From a virus (Duplodnaviria; Caudoviricetes): 64,000 bases of DNA. Below are positions 25,608 to 64,000 of this stretch, in pieces. The notes beneath the pieces were generated by a model. The model was not told the DNA's origin and searched no databases. It saw only the letters and a list, made by a program, of their open reading frames with translations. The position numbers were made by a program, and so were the translations under genes. Numbering within the stretch: the stretch's first letter is position 1; each line of letters begins with the position of its first letter. The DNA lies in the IMG/VR virus record IMGVR_UViG_3300048606_000075, positions 25,816 to 89,815 of that record. One strand, 5' to 3'.

Positions 25608-26008
25608 TAGACGCCCCCATCGTCAACAACGGAAGCGTCGGCCAGCTGCATTAGATAATCCCGCTGAGAGTCCCGCAGCGGCGCCATCAACGCCACCTGC
25701 TCAGGAGTCAACCAGGACGACAACTCGTATGGCCCATCTACTGTGTCAATCTTGCAAGCATAGTGGCCGTCTCGATCAATCTCAGTCCACGAAGTGGGGC
25801 GGAGCTGCACGTCCCGGCCATCGTTGACGCCCAGACTCACCAGGTGCGGCCAGCCGTCTTCCATCGACATCACCACCAGAACCGGCGCGGACGACTGTCC
25901 CTCCGCCGCCAACGTCCCATCCGCGAGCAACGGAGCGACCTGCACGCCTTCCGGGAAATGCTCGTCTAACAACTGCTGCCATTCAACAGCAGTGGTAGGT
26001 AATGTCAC
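25607..26008 (-). CDS. hypothetical protein coupled to the MuF unit (candidate immunity/partner)
   Basis: 133 aa, acidic; GTGA overlap with the MuF stop. Confidence 0.7.
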   Translation of the reverse strand: MTLPTTAVEWQQLLDEHFPEGVQVAPLLADGTLAAEGQSSAPVLVVMSMEDGWPHLVSLGVNDGRDVQLRPTSWTEIDRDGHYACKIDTVDGPYELSSWLTPEQVALMAPLRDSQRDYLMQLADASVVDDGGV

Positions 26009-59875: not shown

Positions 59876-59877
59876 TG

Positions 59878-59951
59878 TGGGAAGGGTAGGAATCGAACCT
59901 ACGACCTCTCGCTCTTCAGGCGAGCGCTGCTACCAGCTGAGCTACCGACCC
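59878..59951 (-). tRNA. tRNA-Phe(GAA)
   Basis: Anticodon arm CTCGC-CTGAAGA-GCGAG; two acceptor-stem mismatches. Confidence 0.85.
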
Positions 59952-60451
59952 GTGGGCCATTCAAGATGGCCATTGTCAAACTCCCAATGATGATTGGGGC
60001 AAAACGTTGTTAGATTGTCAACTGCATTTACTTCCGCAAGCGTAGCAGACATCGGGAAGTCCGCAACAGGTCTTATGTGGCACACATCTACATGCAAGTT
60101 GTATCCACAAGCAACACACTCTAGCTTACCTTTAAAGATTGATCTAGCAAGCCCTCTAATCTTACCATGATACTGACTAATACTATAAGCATCTCTTAAT
60201 TCTTGTAACATTAGATTATCTATGAAACTAGCTTTATTTTGCTTACGACAATCACGACAAATATCAACATTACCTGGTTTGCGTTCAGATCCACACTGAG
60301 AACAAAAACGTTCTTTTTTACGAGAATTAGCTATAAATCTGTTAGAACAAACTACATTACAAAAACGAAACTTATCCTTAGGACCATTACTGACACGACT
60401 AAACTCAACATCACAGTACTCACAAACACCAGACAAAATCTTTACTCGCAC
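59942..60451 (-). CDS. HNH endonuclease with Zn-finger N-terminus
   Basis: CVACGY...VDVCHIRP...NAVDNLTTFCPNHHWEFD. Confidence 0.88.
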   Translation of the reverse strand: MRVKILSGVCEYCDVEFSRVSNGPKDKFRFCNVVCSNRFIANSRKKERFCSQCGSERKPGNVDICRDCRKQNKASFIDNLMLQELRDAYSISQYHGKIRGLARSIFKGKLECVACGYNLHVDVCHIRPVADFPMSATLAEVNAVDNLTTFCPNHHWEFDNGHLEWPTGR

Positions 60452-60474
60452 ACAAGCGTACTACCCACAAGTTG

Positions 60475-60546
60475 TGGGGGCGGAGCCTGAGTCGAACAGG
60501 AACTCTGGATTATGAGCCCAGTGTGATGCCATTTCACCACTCCGCA
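60475..60546 (-). tRNA. tRNA-Met(CAT), initiator-like
   Basis: CTGGG-CTCATAA-TCCAG; 1:72 mismatch; encoded CCA. Confidence 0.8.
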
Positions 60547-60549
60547 AGC

Positions 60550-60623
60550 GATTCCGACCGGACTCGAACCGGCATATTCCACCGTGACAAGGTGGTCCAT
60601 TGTCCTAATTATGGTACGGAACC
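60550..60623 (-). tRNA. tRNA-Asp(GTC)
   Basis: CCACC-TTGTCAC-GGTGG. Confidence 0.88.
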
Positions 60624-60640
60624 ATGATTTAATTGTGACG

Positions 60641-60718
60641 TAGCCTAGACCGGAATCGAACCGGCGTCGCACCCTGCTTGAAAGGCAGGTCGCCCCTATC
60701 CAGCAGAGCAACTAGGCC
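60641..60718 (-). tRNA. tRNA-Glu(TTC)
   Basis: CCTGC-CTTTCAA-GCAGG. Confidence 0.88.
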
Positions 60719-60736
60719 ATGTACTTGTATGACTAC

Positions 60737-60765
60737 ATACTACCGTGCTAGTGCCTAACTTGCAA
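60737..60765 (-). promoter_or_regulatory. sigma70/HrdB-type promoter for tRNA-Glu
   Basis: TTGCAA-N17-TAGTAT, 18 nt upstream of the tRNA. Confidence 0.65.
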
Positions 60766-60775
60766 GCACTTTACG

Positions 60776-60856
60776 AACCGCCCGGGAGATTCGAACTCCA
60801 GCCTCTCGGCTGTGCGCTTTGCAGGCGCACCCTACCTGCCCGGTAAAACGGACGGC
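60776..60856 (-). tRNA. atypical tRNA-Cys(GCA) with 8/4 acceptor/T fold
   Basis: 8-bp acceptor, 4-bp T stem, 6-bp anticodon stem, variable hairpin, U73. Confidence 0.7.
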
Positions 60857-60857
60857 T

Positions 60858-60950
60858 TGGCGGAGAGACCGGGTCTCGAACCCGGACGGGCTCACGCCCC
60901 AAGCGGCTTCCAACCGCTGGTCAGTAGGCCAAAACTTGACTTACCTCTCC
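60858..60950 (-). tRNA. tRNA-Ser(GGA)
   Basis: AGCGG-TTGGAAG-CCGCT; long variable arm; CCA. Confidence 0.85.
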
Positions 60951-60954
60951 AGAG

Positions 60955-61037
60955 CGGAAAGCAGAGGTTCCGACCCCCACGGCTCTTACACCGCTCCGGA
61001 TTTCAAATCCGGATGCATCACCCGATGCTTGCCTTCC
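60955..61037 (-). tRNA. tRNA-Ser(TGA), divergent T loop
   Basis: CCGGA-TTTGAAA-TCCGG; T loop GTCGGAA. Confidence 0.72.
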
Positions 61038-61038
61038 T

Positions 61039-61125
61039 TGGCGGAGAGCCGAGGTATCGATCCCCCAGGCTTTCACCTGTATGCCGCGCTTCGAACGCAA
61101 CTGCGTCACCATCAGCAGACTCTCC
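61039..61125 (-). tRNA. tRNA-Ser(CGA)
   Basis: TTCGAAG loop; G73; CCA; T loop ATCGATA. Confidence 0.78.
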
Positions 61126-61142
61126 AAGACTATTTAGTTGTT

Positions 61143-61235
61143 TGGCGGAGAGACTGGATCTCGAATCCAGACGGGATTGCTCCCCAACGATTTAGCAAAT
61201 CGTGGTCAGTAGGCCGGAACTTGACTTACCTCTCC
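61143..61235 (-). tRNA. tRNA-Ser(GCT)
   Basis: ACGAT-TTGCTAA-ATCGT; CCA. Confidence 0.87.
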
Positions 61236-61236
61236 T

Positions 61237-61317
61237 TGGTACCAGTACTAGGAATCGAACCTAGCTAGCCGATGGCGAGGGATTTACAGTCCCCCTCGTT
61301 TCCCAGAACATACTGGC
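61237..61317 (-). tRNA. tRNA-Tyr(GTA)
   Basis: GGGGA-CTGTAAA-TCCCT; CCA. Confidence 0.85.
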
Positions 61318-61341
61318 ATGTCTAGATGTTACCGCGTCCTA

Positions 61342-61603
61342 CCCCACCCGGGCCAAAGGGTGGGGCAGCCACGCTACCTTGGTCCTGGGCTGTGGTGCGC
61401 GACATCAGAACGCGACCTTAGCCAACTCGACCCACTGTTTATCGCCTGCTCGCGTCGGCGACTAACCGACGTGTCTGAAGTTAGCGTGGGAGAACAGCTT
61501 GGTCAAGTTAGAACAGGGAGTACAAAGGCGTCTGCTGTACTGAACGTGCCAACGCACCACACGAGTGTTACAGAGCTTACCTGTGCCGTCGACCTTTGTA
61601 CTC
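61342..61603 (-). ncRNA. candidate structured non-coding RNA(s) in the tRNA array
   Basis: No credible ORF; stems of 11 bp (61518-61603), 8 bp (61342-61365) and several shorter ones. Confidence 0.45.
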
Positions 61604-61604
61604 G

Positions 61605-61676
61605 TACCGGAACCAGGAATCGAACCTAGATAAACGGCTTATGAGACCGTTGCCTTAGCCGTTAGGCTATTCCGGC
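61605..61676 (-). tRNA. tRNA-Met/Ile2(CAT)
   Basis: ACGGT-CTCATAA-GCCGT. Confidence 0.85.
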
Positions 61677-61677
61677 T

Positions 61678-61839
61678 TGGGGGCACGCCCAGGAGTTAAA
61701 CCTGGATCAACCTCTCAGTAACTCCCGAATGCAGATTCTTTGAACGTCTCCAAGTCCTCTACGGGAGGGGCATGCTCTCGCAGATGTACAGTCTGCTACT
61801 ACATGCACATCGGCACTTTAACGTTAAGCTAACGCGCCC
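61678..61839 (-). ncRNA. 162-nt tRNA-like RNA with large central insert
   Basis: 8-bp acceptor plus CCA, D arm, T arm CCAGG/CCTGG; about 100 nt in place of anticodon and variable arms. Confidence 0.55.
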
Positions 61840-61840
61840 G

Positions 61841-61914
61841 TGAACCTGGTGGGGGTCGAACCCACACTTGGAGGATTTTAAGTCCTCTTCCTCTGCCTAT
61901 TGGGATACAGGTCC
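61841..61914 (-). tRNA. tRNA-Leu(TAA), short variable loop
   Basis: GAGGA-CTTAAAA-TCCTC; A73. Confidence 0.87.
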
Positions 61915-61924
61915 ATACTAAGTT

Positions 61925-61999
61925 TGGGGCGAATGACGAGATTTGAACTCGCGTGACCCTGGACCACAACCAGGTGCATTCCTGTCTGCCACATCCGCC
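61925..61999 (-). tRNA. tRNA-His(GTG)
   Basis: CCTGG-TTGTGGT-CCAGG; G-1:C73; CCA. Confidence 0.9.
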
Positions 62000-62004
62000 A
62001 TGAG

Positions 62005-62250
62005 TAACGACGAGAACCATCTCACCCGCCGTTGTGACCAGCCCTCTCTCGTTTGTCTTCCGATCGCTGGCCTTCCGAGTATTCACGCAGGAAGGTCGGG
62101 ATGGGGTAGCGAACCTGCTCCCAACCCCCTGCGGGTGGTTCCGCTAGGTACGGGGGCTTACCACCAAGCCGCCGGGCTTTGCTCCGCTGCACCGGCTAGC
62201 GCCTTGGGGAGGATGTTCGACGAAGGTGCACCCCCTCCCCAGAGGTGACC
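62005..62250 (-). ncRNA. candidate structured non-coding RNA (about 250 nt)
   Basis: Multiple stems (GGGGAGG/CCTCCCC, CGCTAG/CTAGCG, GGCTT/AAGCC, CCTTCC/GGAAGG, CACCCGC/GCGGGTG); no credible ORF. Confidence 0.4.
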
Positions 62251-62253
62251 CAG

Positions 62254-62326
62254 CTGGCCTAGTTGGATTCGAACCAACACCTAAGCGGGTAACAACCGCT
62301 TGCTCTGCCAATTAAGCTACAGACCA
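62254..62326 (-). tRNA. tRNA-Asn(GTT)
   Basis: AGCGG-TTGTTAC-CCGCT. Confidence 0.9.
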
Positions 62327-62350
62327 TTGATACTGCTGTACTATCCTACG

Positions 62351-62422
62351 TTCCTCCCTCAGGACTCGAACCTGAACCCCAAGAACCAAAATCTTGTCGG
62401 CTGCCGATTACCACACGGAGGA
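62351..62422 (-). tRNA. tRNA-Gln(TTG)
   Basis: CAAGA-TTTTGGT-TCTTG. Confidence 0.88.
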
Positions 62423-62568
62423 TTGGCCCCCCAACACCACCAGGGGGTAGTTTACCGATCAGGTCACTACGCTGATCAGATGGTCGACTAAACATATCGC
62501 TCATAACGAGCGATAGAGGTCCAGCCCGGGGCCGGTTCCCCGTAAGCCCGTCAGTGTCACAGGCTTTG

Positions 62569-62641
62569 CTGCTCTGCCAGGGCTCGAACCTAGACTAAGT
62601 GGGCCAGAACCACTCGTGCTGCCGAATTACACCACAGAGCA
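62569..62641 (-). tRNA. tRNA-Gln(CTG)
   Basis: AGTGG-TTCTGGC-CCACT. Confidence 0.88.
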
Positions 62642-62724
62642 ATGAGTGCTGGGCGCCACTCCAGCGATTGTATGTCAAGCATACGGCAAGGTGCTGAGTA
62701 AGTCGTGCCCAAACTCAGTACCAG

Positions 62725-62796
62725 CATGAGAGTAGGGAGTCGAACCCCATTTCGCTCGGTTTTGGAGACCAAGTGCCTATCCGTTGGCTCTCTCAT
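62725..62796 (-). tRNA. tRNA-Trp(CCA)
   Basis: TTGGT-CTCCAAA-ACCGA. Confidence 0.82.
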
Positions 62797-62888
62797 ATGA
62801 AGTGGCAATCTGGGTACGTCCGGTACCGGACACCTTTCGCTTGGGGCGATCAACCCCCGCACCGCCACGCTCTCGGGCGTTGCCACAG

Positions 62889-62960
62889 AGCCACAGCTGG
62901 GAATCGGACCCAGAAGACGTCCTTACCAAGGACGCGGTTTACCATTCAGCCTACTGTGAC
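62889..62960 (-). tRNA. tRNA-Thr(GGT)
   Basis: CGTCC-TTGGTAA-GGACG. Confidence 0.85.
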
Positions 62961-63436
62961 ATGATTTTAATGTAATTCTGGATTGTCACATGCGACACAC
63001 CAAACTTAGCTCCGGCACGTCGCATAGACGGACGATCCATTAAGCGATAATACTCAACAGCTTGCACTGCACGAAAAGCATTGGCGTCTTTACGTTCTTG
63101 AATTTTACGTTGTCTCTCACCCCACGCTGCAAGTGCAACATCAATTTGAGACTGACGACGCCTACCCATTAATGGTCGAAGAATTTCCATGATTTTAGCT
63201 GCTCGACTAGAAACTACACTCCACGACCAAGTGTCTTTAAAATGTTCTTGTCGTTTAGCATGAGAGATATAGTTTCCACCAAAAATACCGGCCAGCCTAG
63301 CTACGACATCCTCATCAGACATCTCACACCAAATGAAGGGAACCGAACCAAGCTTGGCTTGAAAAGATCCCTCACCCTCAAGCAACCCAGCAGCCCAGGC
63401 CAAATCCATTTCGGTAACTTCCATGGTCAGAAGCAT
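62951..63436 (-). CDS. single-motif LAGLIDADG endonuclease with C-terminal HTH
   Basis: LAWAAGLLEGEGSF; SMRRAGAKFGVSHVTIQNY. Confidence 0.85.
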   Translation of the reverse strand: MLLTMEVTEMDLAWAAGLLEGEGSFQAKLGSVPFIWCEMSDEDVVARLAGIFGGNYISHAKRQEHFKDTWSWSVVSSRAAKIMEILRPLMGRRRQSQIDVALAAWGERQRKIQERKDANAFRAVQAVEYYRLMDRPSMRRAGAKFGVSHVTIQNYIKIMSQ

Positions 63437-63463
63437 AGCACCTCAGCTTTACCAAAACTTGCG

Positions 63464-63534
63464 AGCCCTAGACCAGAATCGAACTGGCGTCGTCAGCTTG
63501 GCAAGCTGACGTGTTCCCACTACACCACTAGGAC
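63464..63534 (-). tRNA. tRNA-Gly(GCC)
   Basis: TCAGC-TTGCCAA-GCTGA; U73. Confidence 0.9.
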
Positions 63535-63949: not shown

Positions 63950-64000
63950 TGGAACCGACAGGCATCGAACCTGCGACCTCCTGTGTGCAAAACAGGCGCT
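63950..64000 (-). tRNA. tRNA-Ala(TGC), 5' end outside the window
   Basis: CCTGT-TTTGCAC-ACAGG; T arm; U70 and A73. Confidence 0.8.

Follow-up and report, generated by a model that had tools for sequence, protein, structure and literature searches.

Phage tRNA-array endonuclease genes that end at positions 8-10 of the next tRNA: an instance of a known arrangement

Coding sequences (CDSs) that run into a transfer RNA (tRNA) gene on the same strand are known from bacteria. Hudson, Lau and Williams (2014) reasoned that maturation of a tRNA or transfer-messenger RNA (tmRNA) overlapped by a CDS should leave a messenger RNA (mRNA) without a stop codon (PMC4131195). They counted 250 same-strand overlaps with an upstream CDS among 115,660 bacterial tRNA and tmRNA genes, and the smpB/ssrA overlap of Carsonella is discussed in the same paper (PMC4131195). 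A related outcome is reached by Escherichia coli arfA, whose non-stop mRNA, generated by RNase III, is repressed by tmRNA (PMC10107115; cited in PMC4131195). Endonucleases are also known from phage tRNA regions. F-TflI (hegC) and F-TflII (hegD) are characterised HNH homing endonucleases of the T5 tRNA region (Akulenko et al. 2004, as cited in PMC10644984), and T4 SegB recognises the T-psi-C motif, a sequence conserved in tRNA genes, and drives the inheritance of its region by homing with co-conversion (PMC2330249). Here, two nuclease genes in a tRNA array of a tailed-phage contig (Caudoviricetes) are compared with these systems. The window analysed is a stretch of 64,000 nucleotides (nt), positions 25,816 to 89,815 of IMG/VR record IMGVR_UViG_3300048606_000075. 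Both genes take their stop codon from tRNA positions 8-10. This stop is real, but it is an ordinary instance of a known arrangement in which free-standing homing endonucleases are packed against tRNA genes.

Two nuclease genes that end inside the next tRNA

Boundaries of the tRNAs were taken from ARAGORN and cross-checked against Rfam RF00005, which gave identical 5' ends for the two tRNAs concerned. All of the features that follow lie on the minus strand. The HNH open reading frame (ORF) at 60451..59942 (169 amino acids, GTG start) ends in a TAG at 59942..59944 that is also U8-A9-G10 of tRNA-Phe(GAA) (59877-59951; 56.7 bits in Rfam). The LAGLIDADG-type ORF at 63436..62951 (161 amino acids, ATG start) ends in a TAG at 62951..62953 that is also U8-A9-G10 of tRNA-Thr(GGU) (62888-62960; 43.5 bits), whose acceptor stem is intact. 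Neither ORF has a private stop codon. The junctions read ...ccc acG GGT CGG TAG CTC AGC... for the HNH ORF and ...atc atG TCA CAG TAG GCT... for the LAGLIDADG-type ORF, and at both of them the third base of a codon coincides with tRNA position 1. Bases 1-10 of tRNA-Phe encode the final three codons and the stop of the HNH ORF, and bases 1-10 of tRNA-Thr encode the final codons and the stop of the other. An earlier note on this DNA had placed both stops at tRNA positions 8-10 and had assigned the genes to two unrelated nuclease families. The positions proved exact to the base in ARAGORN, Rfam, the ORF list and the sequence itself, and both ORFs are intact homing-endonuclease-type genes, one of HNH_2/phrog_1271 type and the other of phrog_5046 LAGLIDADG type.

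These are the sole long ORFs of the array, and each occupies an entire gap between tRNAs, outside introns, as expected of free-standing tRNA-array endonucleases. The HNH start lies 23 nt after the 3' end of tRNA-Met(CAU) (60475..60546), and the LAGLIDADG-type ATG lies 26 nt after the 3' end of tRNA-Gly(GCC) (63463..63534). There is no space for a terminator between either ORF and its downstream tRNA, so the nuclease message would form the 5' leader of the tRNA precursor. A transcript that contains either nuclease stop codon necessarily contains a whole tRNA as well, and with it a substrate of ribonuclease P (RNase P). An upstream, co-oriented CDS with its stop inside a valid tRNA places both pairs in the class of same-strand overlaps defined in PMC4131195. 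A sigma-70-like match ending at 62961 would initiate transcription within the tRNA and was treated as a chance occurrence.

The stop at positions 8-10 probably arises incidentally, from tight packing or from the mode of insertion, with the conserved tRNA triplet serving as a back-stop. Two recently acquired free-standing genes, one of HNH_2 type and one of LAGLIDADG plus helix-turn-helix type, would have entered short spacers between co-oriented tRNAs of the array. The conserved domain of each ends about 11-14 nt before the next tRNA with no private stop codon, and translation would continue through the tRNA leader and the 5' strand of the acceptor stem to the first in-frame stop. In the phase seen here that first stop is the near-universal U8-A9-G10, read as TAG, and the tRNA sets the final two or three residues of the protein (..T-G-R and ..M-S-Q). 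As a side effect, cleavage by RNase P at tRNA position +1 should yield a non-stop nuclease mRNA, which may reduce the yield of nuclease.

The HNH ORF matches Pfam PF13391 (HNH_2) over residues 112-162 (33.7 bits against a cutoff of 21) and phrog_1271, 'HNH endonuclease'. It is 32% identical (E 3e-20) to the HNH protein of viral locus L024, a homologue with the same stop geometry. The N-terminal fingers are rich in cysteine and the H-N-H motif is intact, with Cys/His metal ligands beside it; ...HVDVCHIRP... aligns with HVEIAH, and ...NLTTFCPNHHWEFDN... with NLMALCPNCHWEYDN, of the L024 homologue. The gene at 59942..60451 is therefore predicted to be a free-standing HNH (His-Me finger) homing-endonuclease-type gene. 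Its GC content is 39%, and 28% at third codon positions (GC3), as compared to 55% GC for the phage and a GC3 of about 74% for resident genes. Exactly 6 nt before the GTG lies GGTAGTAC (60458..60465), a recurrent promoter-like motif of this phage. Motifs of this type, GGTA(G/T)(A/G/T)AC, number 22 copies in the window as compared to 6.45 expected (none of 100 shuffles reached 22). Of its 19 minus-strand sites, 10 are followed by a start codon after 6 nt, that of the HNH gene among them. The motif is probably the -10 element of promoters that serve leaderless messages and tRNA sub-operons. The minus-strand sites span 15374-61343, with one copy at 61336-61343 and one copy 18 nt before tRNA-Tyr.

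The LAGLIDADG-type ORF matches phrog_5046 at 1.7e-19. The relatives found by tblastn bear the annotation LAGLIDADG endonuclease, and longer relatives carry PF14528/PF00961. A profile built from 35 family sequences matches the PDB entries for I-AniI, I-HjeMI and I-OnuI at E values of 0.001-0.005, over residues 4-61 only. The LAGLIDADG helix motif LAWAAGLLEGEGSF carries the invariant columns of the family alignment, including the conserved acidic residue, and W14, A16, G17, L19, E20, G21, E22, G23 and F25 are invariant across the 35 LAGLIDADG-type homologues. The gene at 62951..63436 is best described, from these matches, as a free-standing gene for a LAGLIDADG-type endonuclease that has a single motif and a helix-turn-helix at its C-terminus. 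It has a GC content of 45.5% and a GC3 of 37%, again as compared to the resident value of about 74%. A GAGG Shine-Dalgarno sequence (63441..63444) lies 4 nt before the ATG. At the other end of the gene, the 14-nt tRNA-Thr leader (...TTAAAATCAT) resembles the leader of tRNA-Asp (repeat D17), so the ORF probably reads through a native leader. Bixzunavirus, Mx1 and TomSawyer have homologues of the window nucleases in their tRNA arrays. Both nucleases may be mobile homing endonucleases; pointing indirectly to this are their foreign base composition and the occurrence of homologues before many different tRNAs.

The shared stop would be meaningless if the ORFs were decayed or miscalled, with true products that end earlier or are not made at all. 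Two features fit such an artefact: the HNH GTG start has no Shine-Dalgarno sequence, and the LAGLIDADG-type protein itself gives no match to Pfam LAGLIDADG models at E <= 0.01. However, many homologues can be aligned with the two ORFs from end to end, and both ORFs retain all invariant or catalytic positions and are free of internal stops. The distance of the HNH start from the GGTAGNAC motif is the canonical 6 nt of this phage, and the LAGLIDADG-type start has its GAGG. An artefact is thus extremely unlikely.

Stop positions in related genes and beside viral tRNAs

In the HNH_2/phrog_1271 family, 39 of 40 viral loci (L122-L161) have tRNAs within 1.5 kb, in both orientations. Counted from the tRNA 5' end, the same-strand members stop at -11, -10, -10, -8, -7, +8 (L143), +14, +16 and +38. 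In 9 of 15 same-strand loci, 5-20 nt separate the end of the conserved domain from tRNA +1; in 6 of 13 antisense loci, its distance from the tRNA gene is -2 to 29 nt. Because tight abutment is independent of orientation, coupling at the level of the transcript cannot explain the packing of HNH genes against tRNAs. The equally tight antisense homologues point to packing or insertion at the DNA level and not to design at the RNA level. At the same-strand loci, tRNA-Met is the most frequent downstream neighbour.

The LAGLIDADG family has tRNAs near 16 of its 80 viral loci. Three homologues end as the window gene does: L163 at the TAA in positions 8-10 of a tRNA-Asp, L232 at the TAG in positions 8-10 of a tRNA-Gly, and L167 at the TAG in positions 8-10 of a tRNA with a presumed intron, which was not called by ARAGORN. 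The L167 tRNA (L167:2027-2212) has an insertion of about 130-150 nt after the anticodon-stem region, presumably the intron. In two further homologues (L168 and L177) the reading frame continues across the next tRNA, and others end far from tRNAs. Homologues in known phages (Drazdys gp163 and gp172, TomSawyer gp109, Mx1) stop ahead of the tRNA. A stop-less arrangement conserved across the gene family, as for arfA, was found in neither the HNH nor the LAGLIDADG family. The same geometry in two unrelated families had been taken by the earlier note as a sign of selection or of a shared insertion strategy. The shared part stands, in that several nuclease families are seated tightly against tRNAs. 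Selection for positions 8-10 does not follow, since most abutting members stop at -12 to -7 or deeper in the tRNA, and antisense members and non-nuclease ORFs behave alike.

A survey was made of where ORFs stop beside viral tRNAs. Viral contigs (IMG/VR) were fetched by two tRNA-only patterns, covering the D-arm and the variable loop with the T-arm, which gave 212 loci in unrelated contigs. These loci contain 877 distinct tRNAs preceded by 330 nt or more of sequence. The loci are among the matches listed for the two pattern scans; they are not phylogenetically independent, and the samples are small. ORFs were defined mechanically, as at least 100 amino acids from the first start codon, with no gene caller. 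Those that ran across another tRNA were discarded as spurious, such as a 155-amino-acid Drazdys ORF ending at +8 of tRNA-Phe, and the survey was recomputed.

Between -60 and the tRNA end, 84 ORF ends were found. The stops cluster from -14 to -3, and +8, with seven ORFs, is the joint top position together with -9. The ORFs ending at +8 include an HNH phrog_1271 gene (L024), an HNH phrog_2255 gene (L119), a SegE-like GIY-YIG gene (L255), a coat-like ORF and several more that have no family match. A second ORF of L024, an HNH phrog_2255 gene, stops at +9 by the ARAGORN boundary, and a PfkB-type ORF (L300) ending at +8 comes from the unfiltered list. The earlier note had named such a survey as a check on its reading; the geometry does recur, at the joint top position and in several nuclease families, but it is used by non-nuclease ORFs as well. 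When the nuclease-linked ORFs are pooled, their stops lie at -12, -10, -9, -8, -8, -7, +8, +8, +8, +9, +13 and +35. About half borrow a stop from the tRNA, roughly one third use positions 8-10, and about half stop at -12 to -7. The stop at 8-10 is therefore the modal outcome, jointly with -9 in the survey, for nuclease genes squeezed against a tRNA. With about one third of tRNA-abutting nuclease ORFs stopping there, two of two in the window has a probability of about 0.1, which is unremarkable after many windows have been scanned. Overall, a CDS stop lies inside the tRNA for 17 of the 877 viral tRNAs (about 2%). This suggests that such stops are about ten times more common in viral contigs than in bacteria (about 0.2%). 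In the literature on overlap between phage CDSs and tRNAs, no paper was found that describes the 8-10 geometry.

Several observations weigh against a mere by-product. Among ORFs that cross into a tRNA with a stop triplet at positions 8-10, seven are in phase with it and two are out of phase, as compared to one third in phase at random (p = 0.008, small sample). Something favours the shortest overlap; selection against junk C-terminal tails could be the cause, and the excess leaves room for a regulatory benefit that may exist. Nuclease-type genes make up 6 of 17 tRNA-crossing ORFs as compared to 6 of 67 others (Fisher p = 0.013), with the seeds biased towards the crossing group. Within the window's array, just 5 of the 19 ARAGORN tRNAs have TAG at 8-10, yet both nucleases precede such tRNAs.

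The in-phase excess and the enrichment of nucleases, the latter a test weakened by the seed bias, would also fit programmed non-stop control. In such a scheme, selection keeps the stop inside the tRNA, RNase P strips it off, and rescue by tmRNA with degradation throttles a toxic nuclease and ties its level to tRNA processing, as in arfA. The lack of terminator space, which puts a whole tRNA in every stop-bearing mRNA, is suited to this, and so is the position of the HNH gene 6 nt behind a resident promoter-like motif, which would make the HNH message the 5' leader of the tRNA-Phe precursor. There are precedents in arfA (PMC10107115) and in the Carsonella smpB/ssrA overlap (PMC4131195). The geometry is not conserved, however, as most abutting homologues stop at -12 to -7 and some at +13 to +38. 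The antisense homologues abut their tRNAs as tightly where RNA coupling is impossible, and non-toxic ORFs end at the same stop. Termination by the first ribosome may precede folding of the tRNA. A route of rescue other than tmRNA would free a near-full-length and probably active enzyme, short of just three non-conserved tail residues beyond the conserved domain. Programmed control of the two window genes is unlikely on this balance.

The path from cleavage by RNase P at +1 to a stop-less mRNA and tagging by tmRNA would follow from established biochemistry and the anatomy, and as an idea the non-stop mRNA from a CDS/tRNA overlap is not new, having been published in 2014 (PMC4131195). Neither tmRNA nor RNase P RNA is encoded in the phage genome. 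A broader proposal is a general, selected governor, in which 5' maturation of the tRNA makes the nuclease mRNA non-stop and only the first, transcription-coupled ribosomes yield untagged enzyme. Such a governor would explain the approximately tenfold viral excess of stops inside tRNAs over bacterial chromosomes; we consider it quite unlikely.

The acceptor stem of tRNA-Phe and the surrounding array

The acceptor stem of tRNA-Phe contains two adjacent mismatches, U4.U69 and C5.U68, and the tRNA still scores 56.7 bits. Among 897 other viral tRNAs, just 11 show two unpaired positions in the acceptor stem. A C13.C22 mismatch is also present in the D-stem of tRNA-Phe. The same 5' strand, GGGTCGG, occurs with a matching 3' strand in the tRNA-Phe of another phage (L345:6287-6362). 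These observations raise the possibility that the stop travelled with the nuclease, as part of a mobile cassette or co-conversion tract that includes the 5' part of the downstream tRNA as far as the conserved TAGCTCAG and turns the resident tRNA into a chimera. Co-conversion of flanks is standard for free-standing homing endonucleases (PMC2330249), and tRNA-Phe may be a chimera left by the HNH gene. As an account of the shared stops, a cassette of this kind is improbable. No displaced tRNA 5' fragment or direct repeat was found upstream of either ORF, the only repeats around being T-arm and tRNA-Ser repeats, and the 14 nt before tRNA-Thr look native, being similar to those of tRNA-Asp. Homologous nucleases precede tRNAs with unrelated acceptor strands, and no close relative was found that could show an empty site. 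The stems of tRNA-Thr(GGU) and of the other tRNAs entered at +8 are intact; the acceptor stem is fully paired in all 11 of the latter, one 1:72 mismatch aside. It is therefore the tRNA, not the ORF, that dictates the shared bases, and the protein tail follows. An argument from synonymous change (GGT CGG as compared to the perfectly pairing GGA AGG, both Gly-Arg) was given no weight, as the chance of such a pattern is about one third.

The source record is a single phage-like contig of 89.8 kb (55% GC). The array lies on the minus strand and extends to the contig end, with 19 tRNAs called by ARAGORN between 59877 and 63893 and more added by Rfam. The contig ends inside a further, partial tRNA at 63950-64000 (minus strand; Rfam model positions 22-71), so the assembly breaks within the array, which is longer than the visible part. 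Four tandem class-II tRNA-Ser-like genes lie at 60858-61235 on the minus strand (60858-60945, 60956-61037, 61038-61130 and 61142-61235), with anticodon loops GGA, UGA, CGA and GCU, and are connected by repeat families D2 and D5. Of the four, just the first is recognised by ARAGORN, and Rfam scores one as tRNA-Sec-like (41.5 bits). The leaders of most of the 19 tRNAs end in CAT, CAA or TAT right before +1 (...aatcat-G and ...gtccaa-G, the hyphen marking the boundary), a common ending that may be due to a preference in processing.

When the region was compared with phages by megablast, the single match was of tRNA size, a single-protein scan of viral contigs found no relatives of the LAGLIDADG gene, and the neighbouring Metallophos gene had relatives only at 37% identity or less. 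With no close relative or empty site found, the insertion history of the two genes could not be reconstructed.

Consequences and comparison with known systems

These results serve as a calibration: a stop at tRNA positions 8-10 should not be taken as a designed feature unless comparative evidence supports it. They also give a rule for annotation. The ends of nuclease genes in tRNA arrays fall within a narrow band, from -12 to about +35 as counted from the 5' end of the tRNA; about half of the genes borrow the stop of the tRNA, and a TAG at positions 8-10 is the single most common site. Gene callers and curators that forbid overlap between CDSs and tRNAs will truncate or overlook such genes. 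If the effect of RNase P and tmRNA proves true and selected, it would be a simple post-transcriptional brake on selfish nucleases and would link phage tRNA processing to ribosome rescue.

The arfA gene resembles the control proposed for the window genes in that processing makes a non-stop mRNA and the level of product is set by trans-translation. The arfA arrangement is conserved and experimentally shown, whereas that of the window is not conserved among homologues and is known from sequence. The overlaps described by Hudson et al. (2014) follow the same logic as those in the window, but they concern bacterial chromosomes, where about 0.2% of tRNAs are affected as compared to about 2% in viral contigs. 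Their paper contains no discussion of homing endonucleases or of the 8-10 position. Like the window nucleases, T4 SegB is a free-standing endonuclease among phage tRNA genes; it belongs to the GIY-YIG family, and the likeness drawn here is one of location.

A similar anatomy is seen in phage T5 (GenBank AY543070), in which F-TflI ends at positions 12-14 of tRNA-Ser2 and F-TflII at positions 21-23 of tRNA-Gln2, while T5.069 ends at positions 22-24 of tRNA-Asn. The T5 tRNA-Gln2 and tRNA-Asn carry TAG at positions 8-10 in the wrong phase, as is predicted if translation runs on to the first in-frame stop. A 27-amino-acid T5 ORF, T5.057, has its annotated end within tRNA-Met, at positions 4-6 (AY543070 28038-28191). 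F-TflI and F-TflII belong to another HNH subfamily than the window HNH protein, tRNA-Gln2 of T5 is flagged as a pseudogene, and the T5 stops lie deeper, in the D-loop (12-14 and 21-23), because their phase misses U8-A9-G10. Like the window genes, F-TflI and F-TflII are free-standing, co-oriented with the tRNAs of their array and devoid of a stop codon of their own, and they end in the next tRNA.

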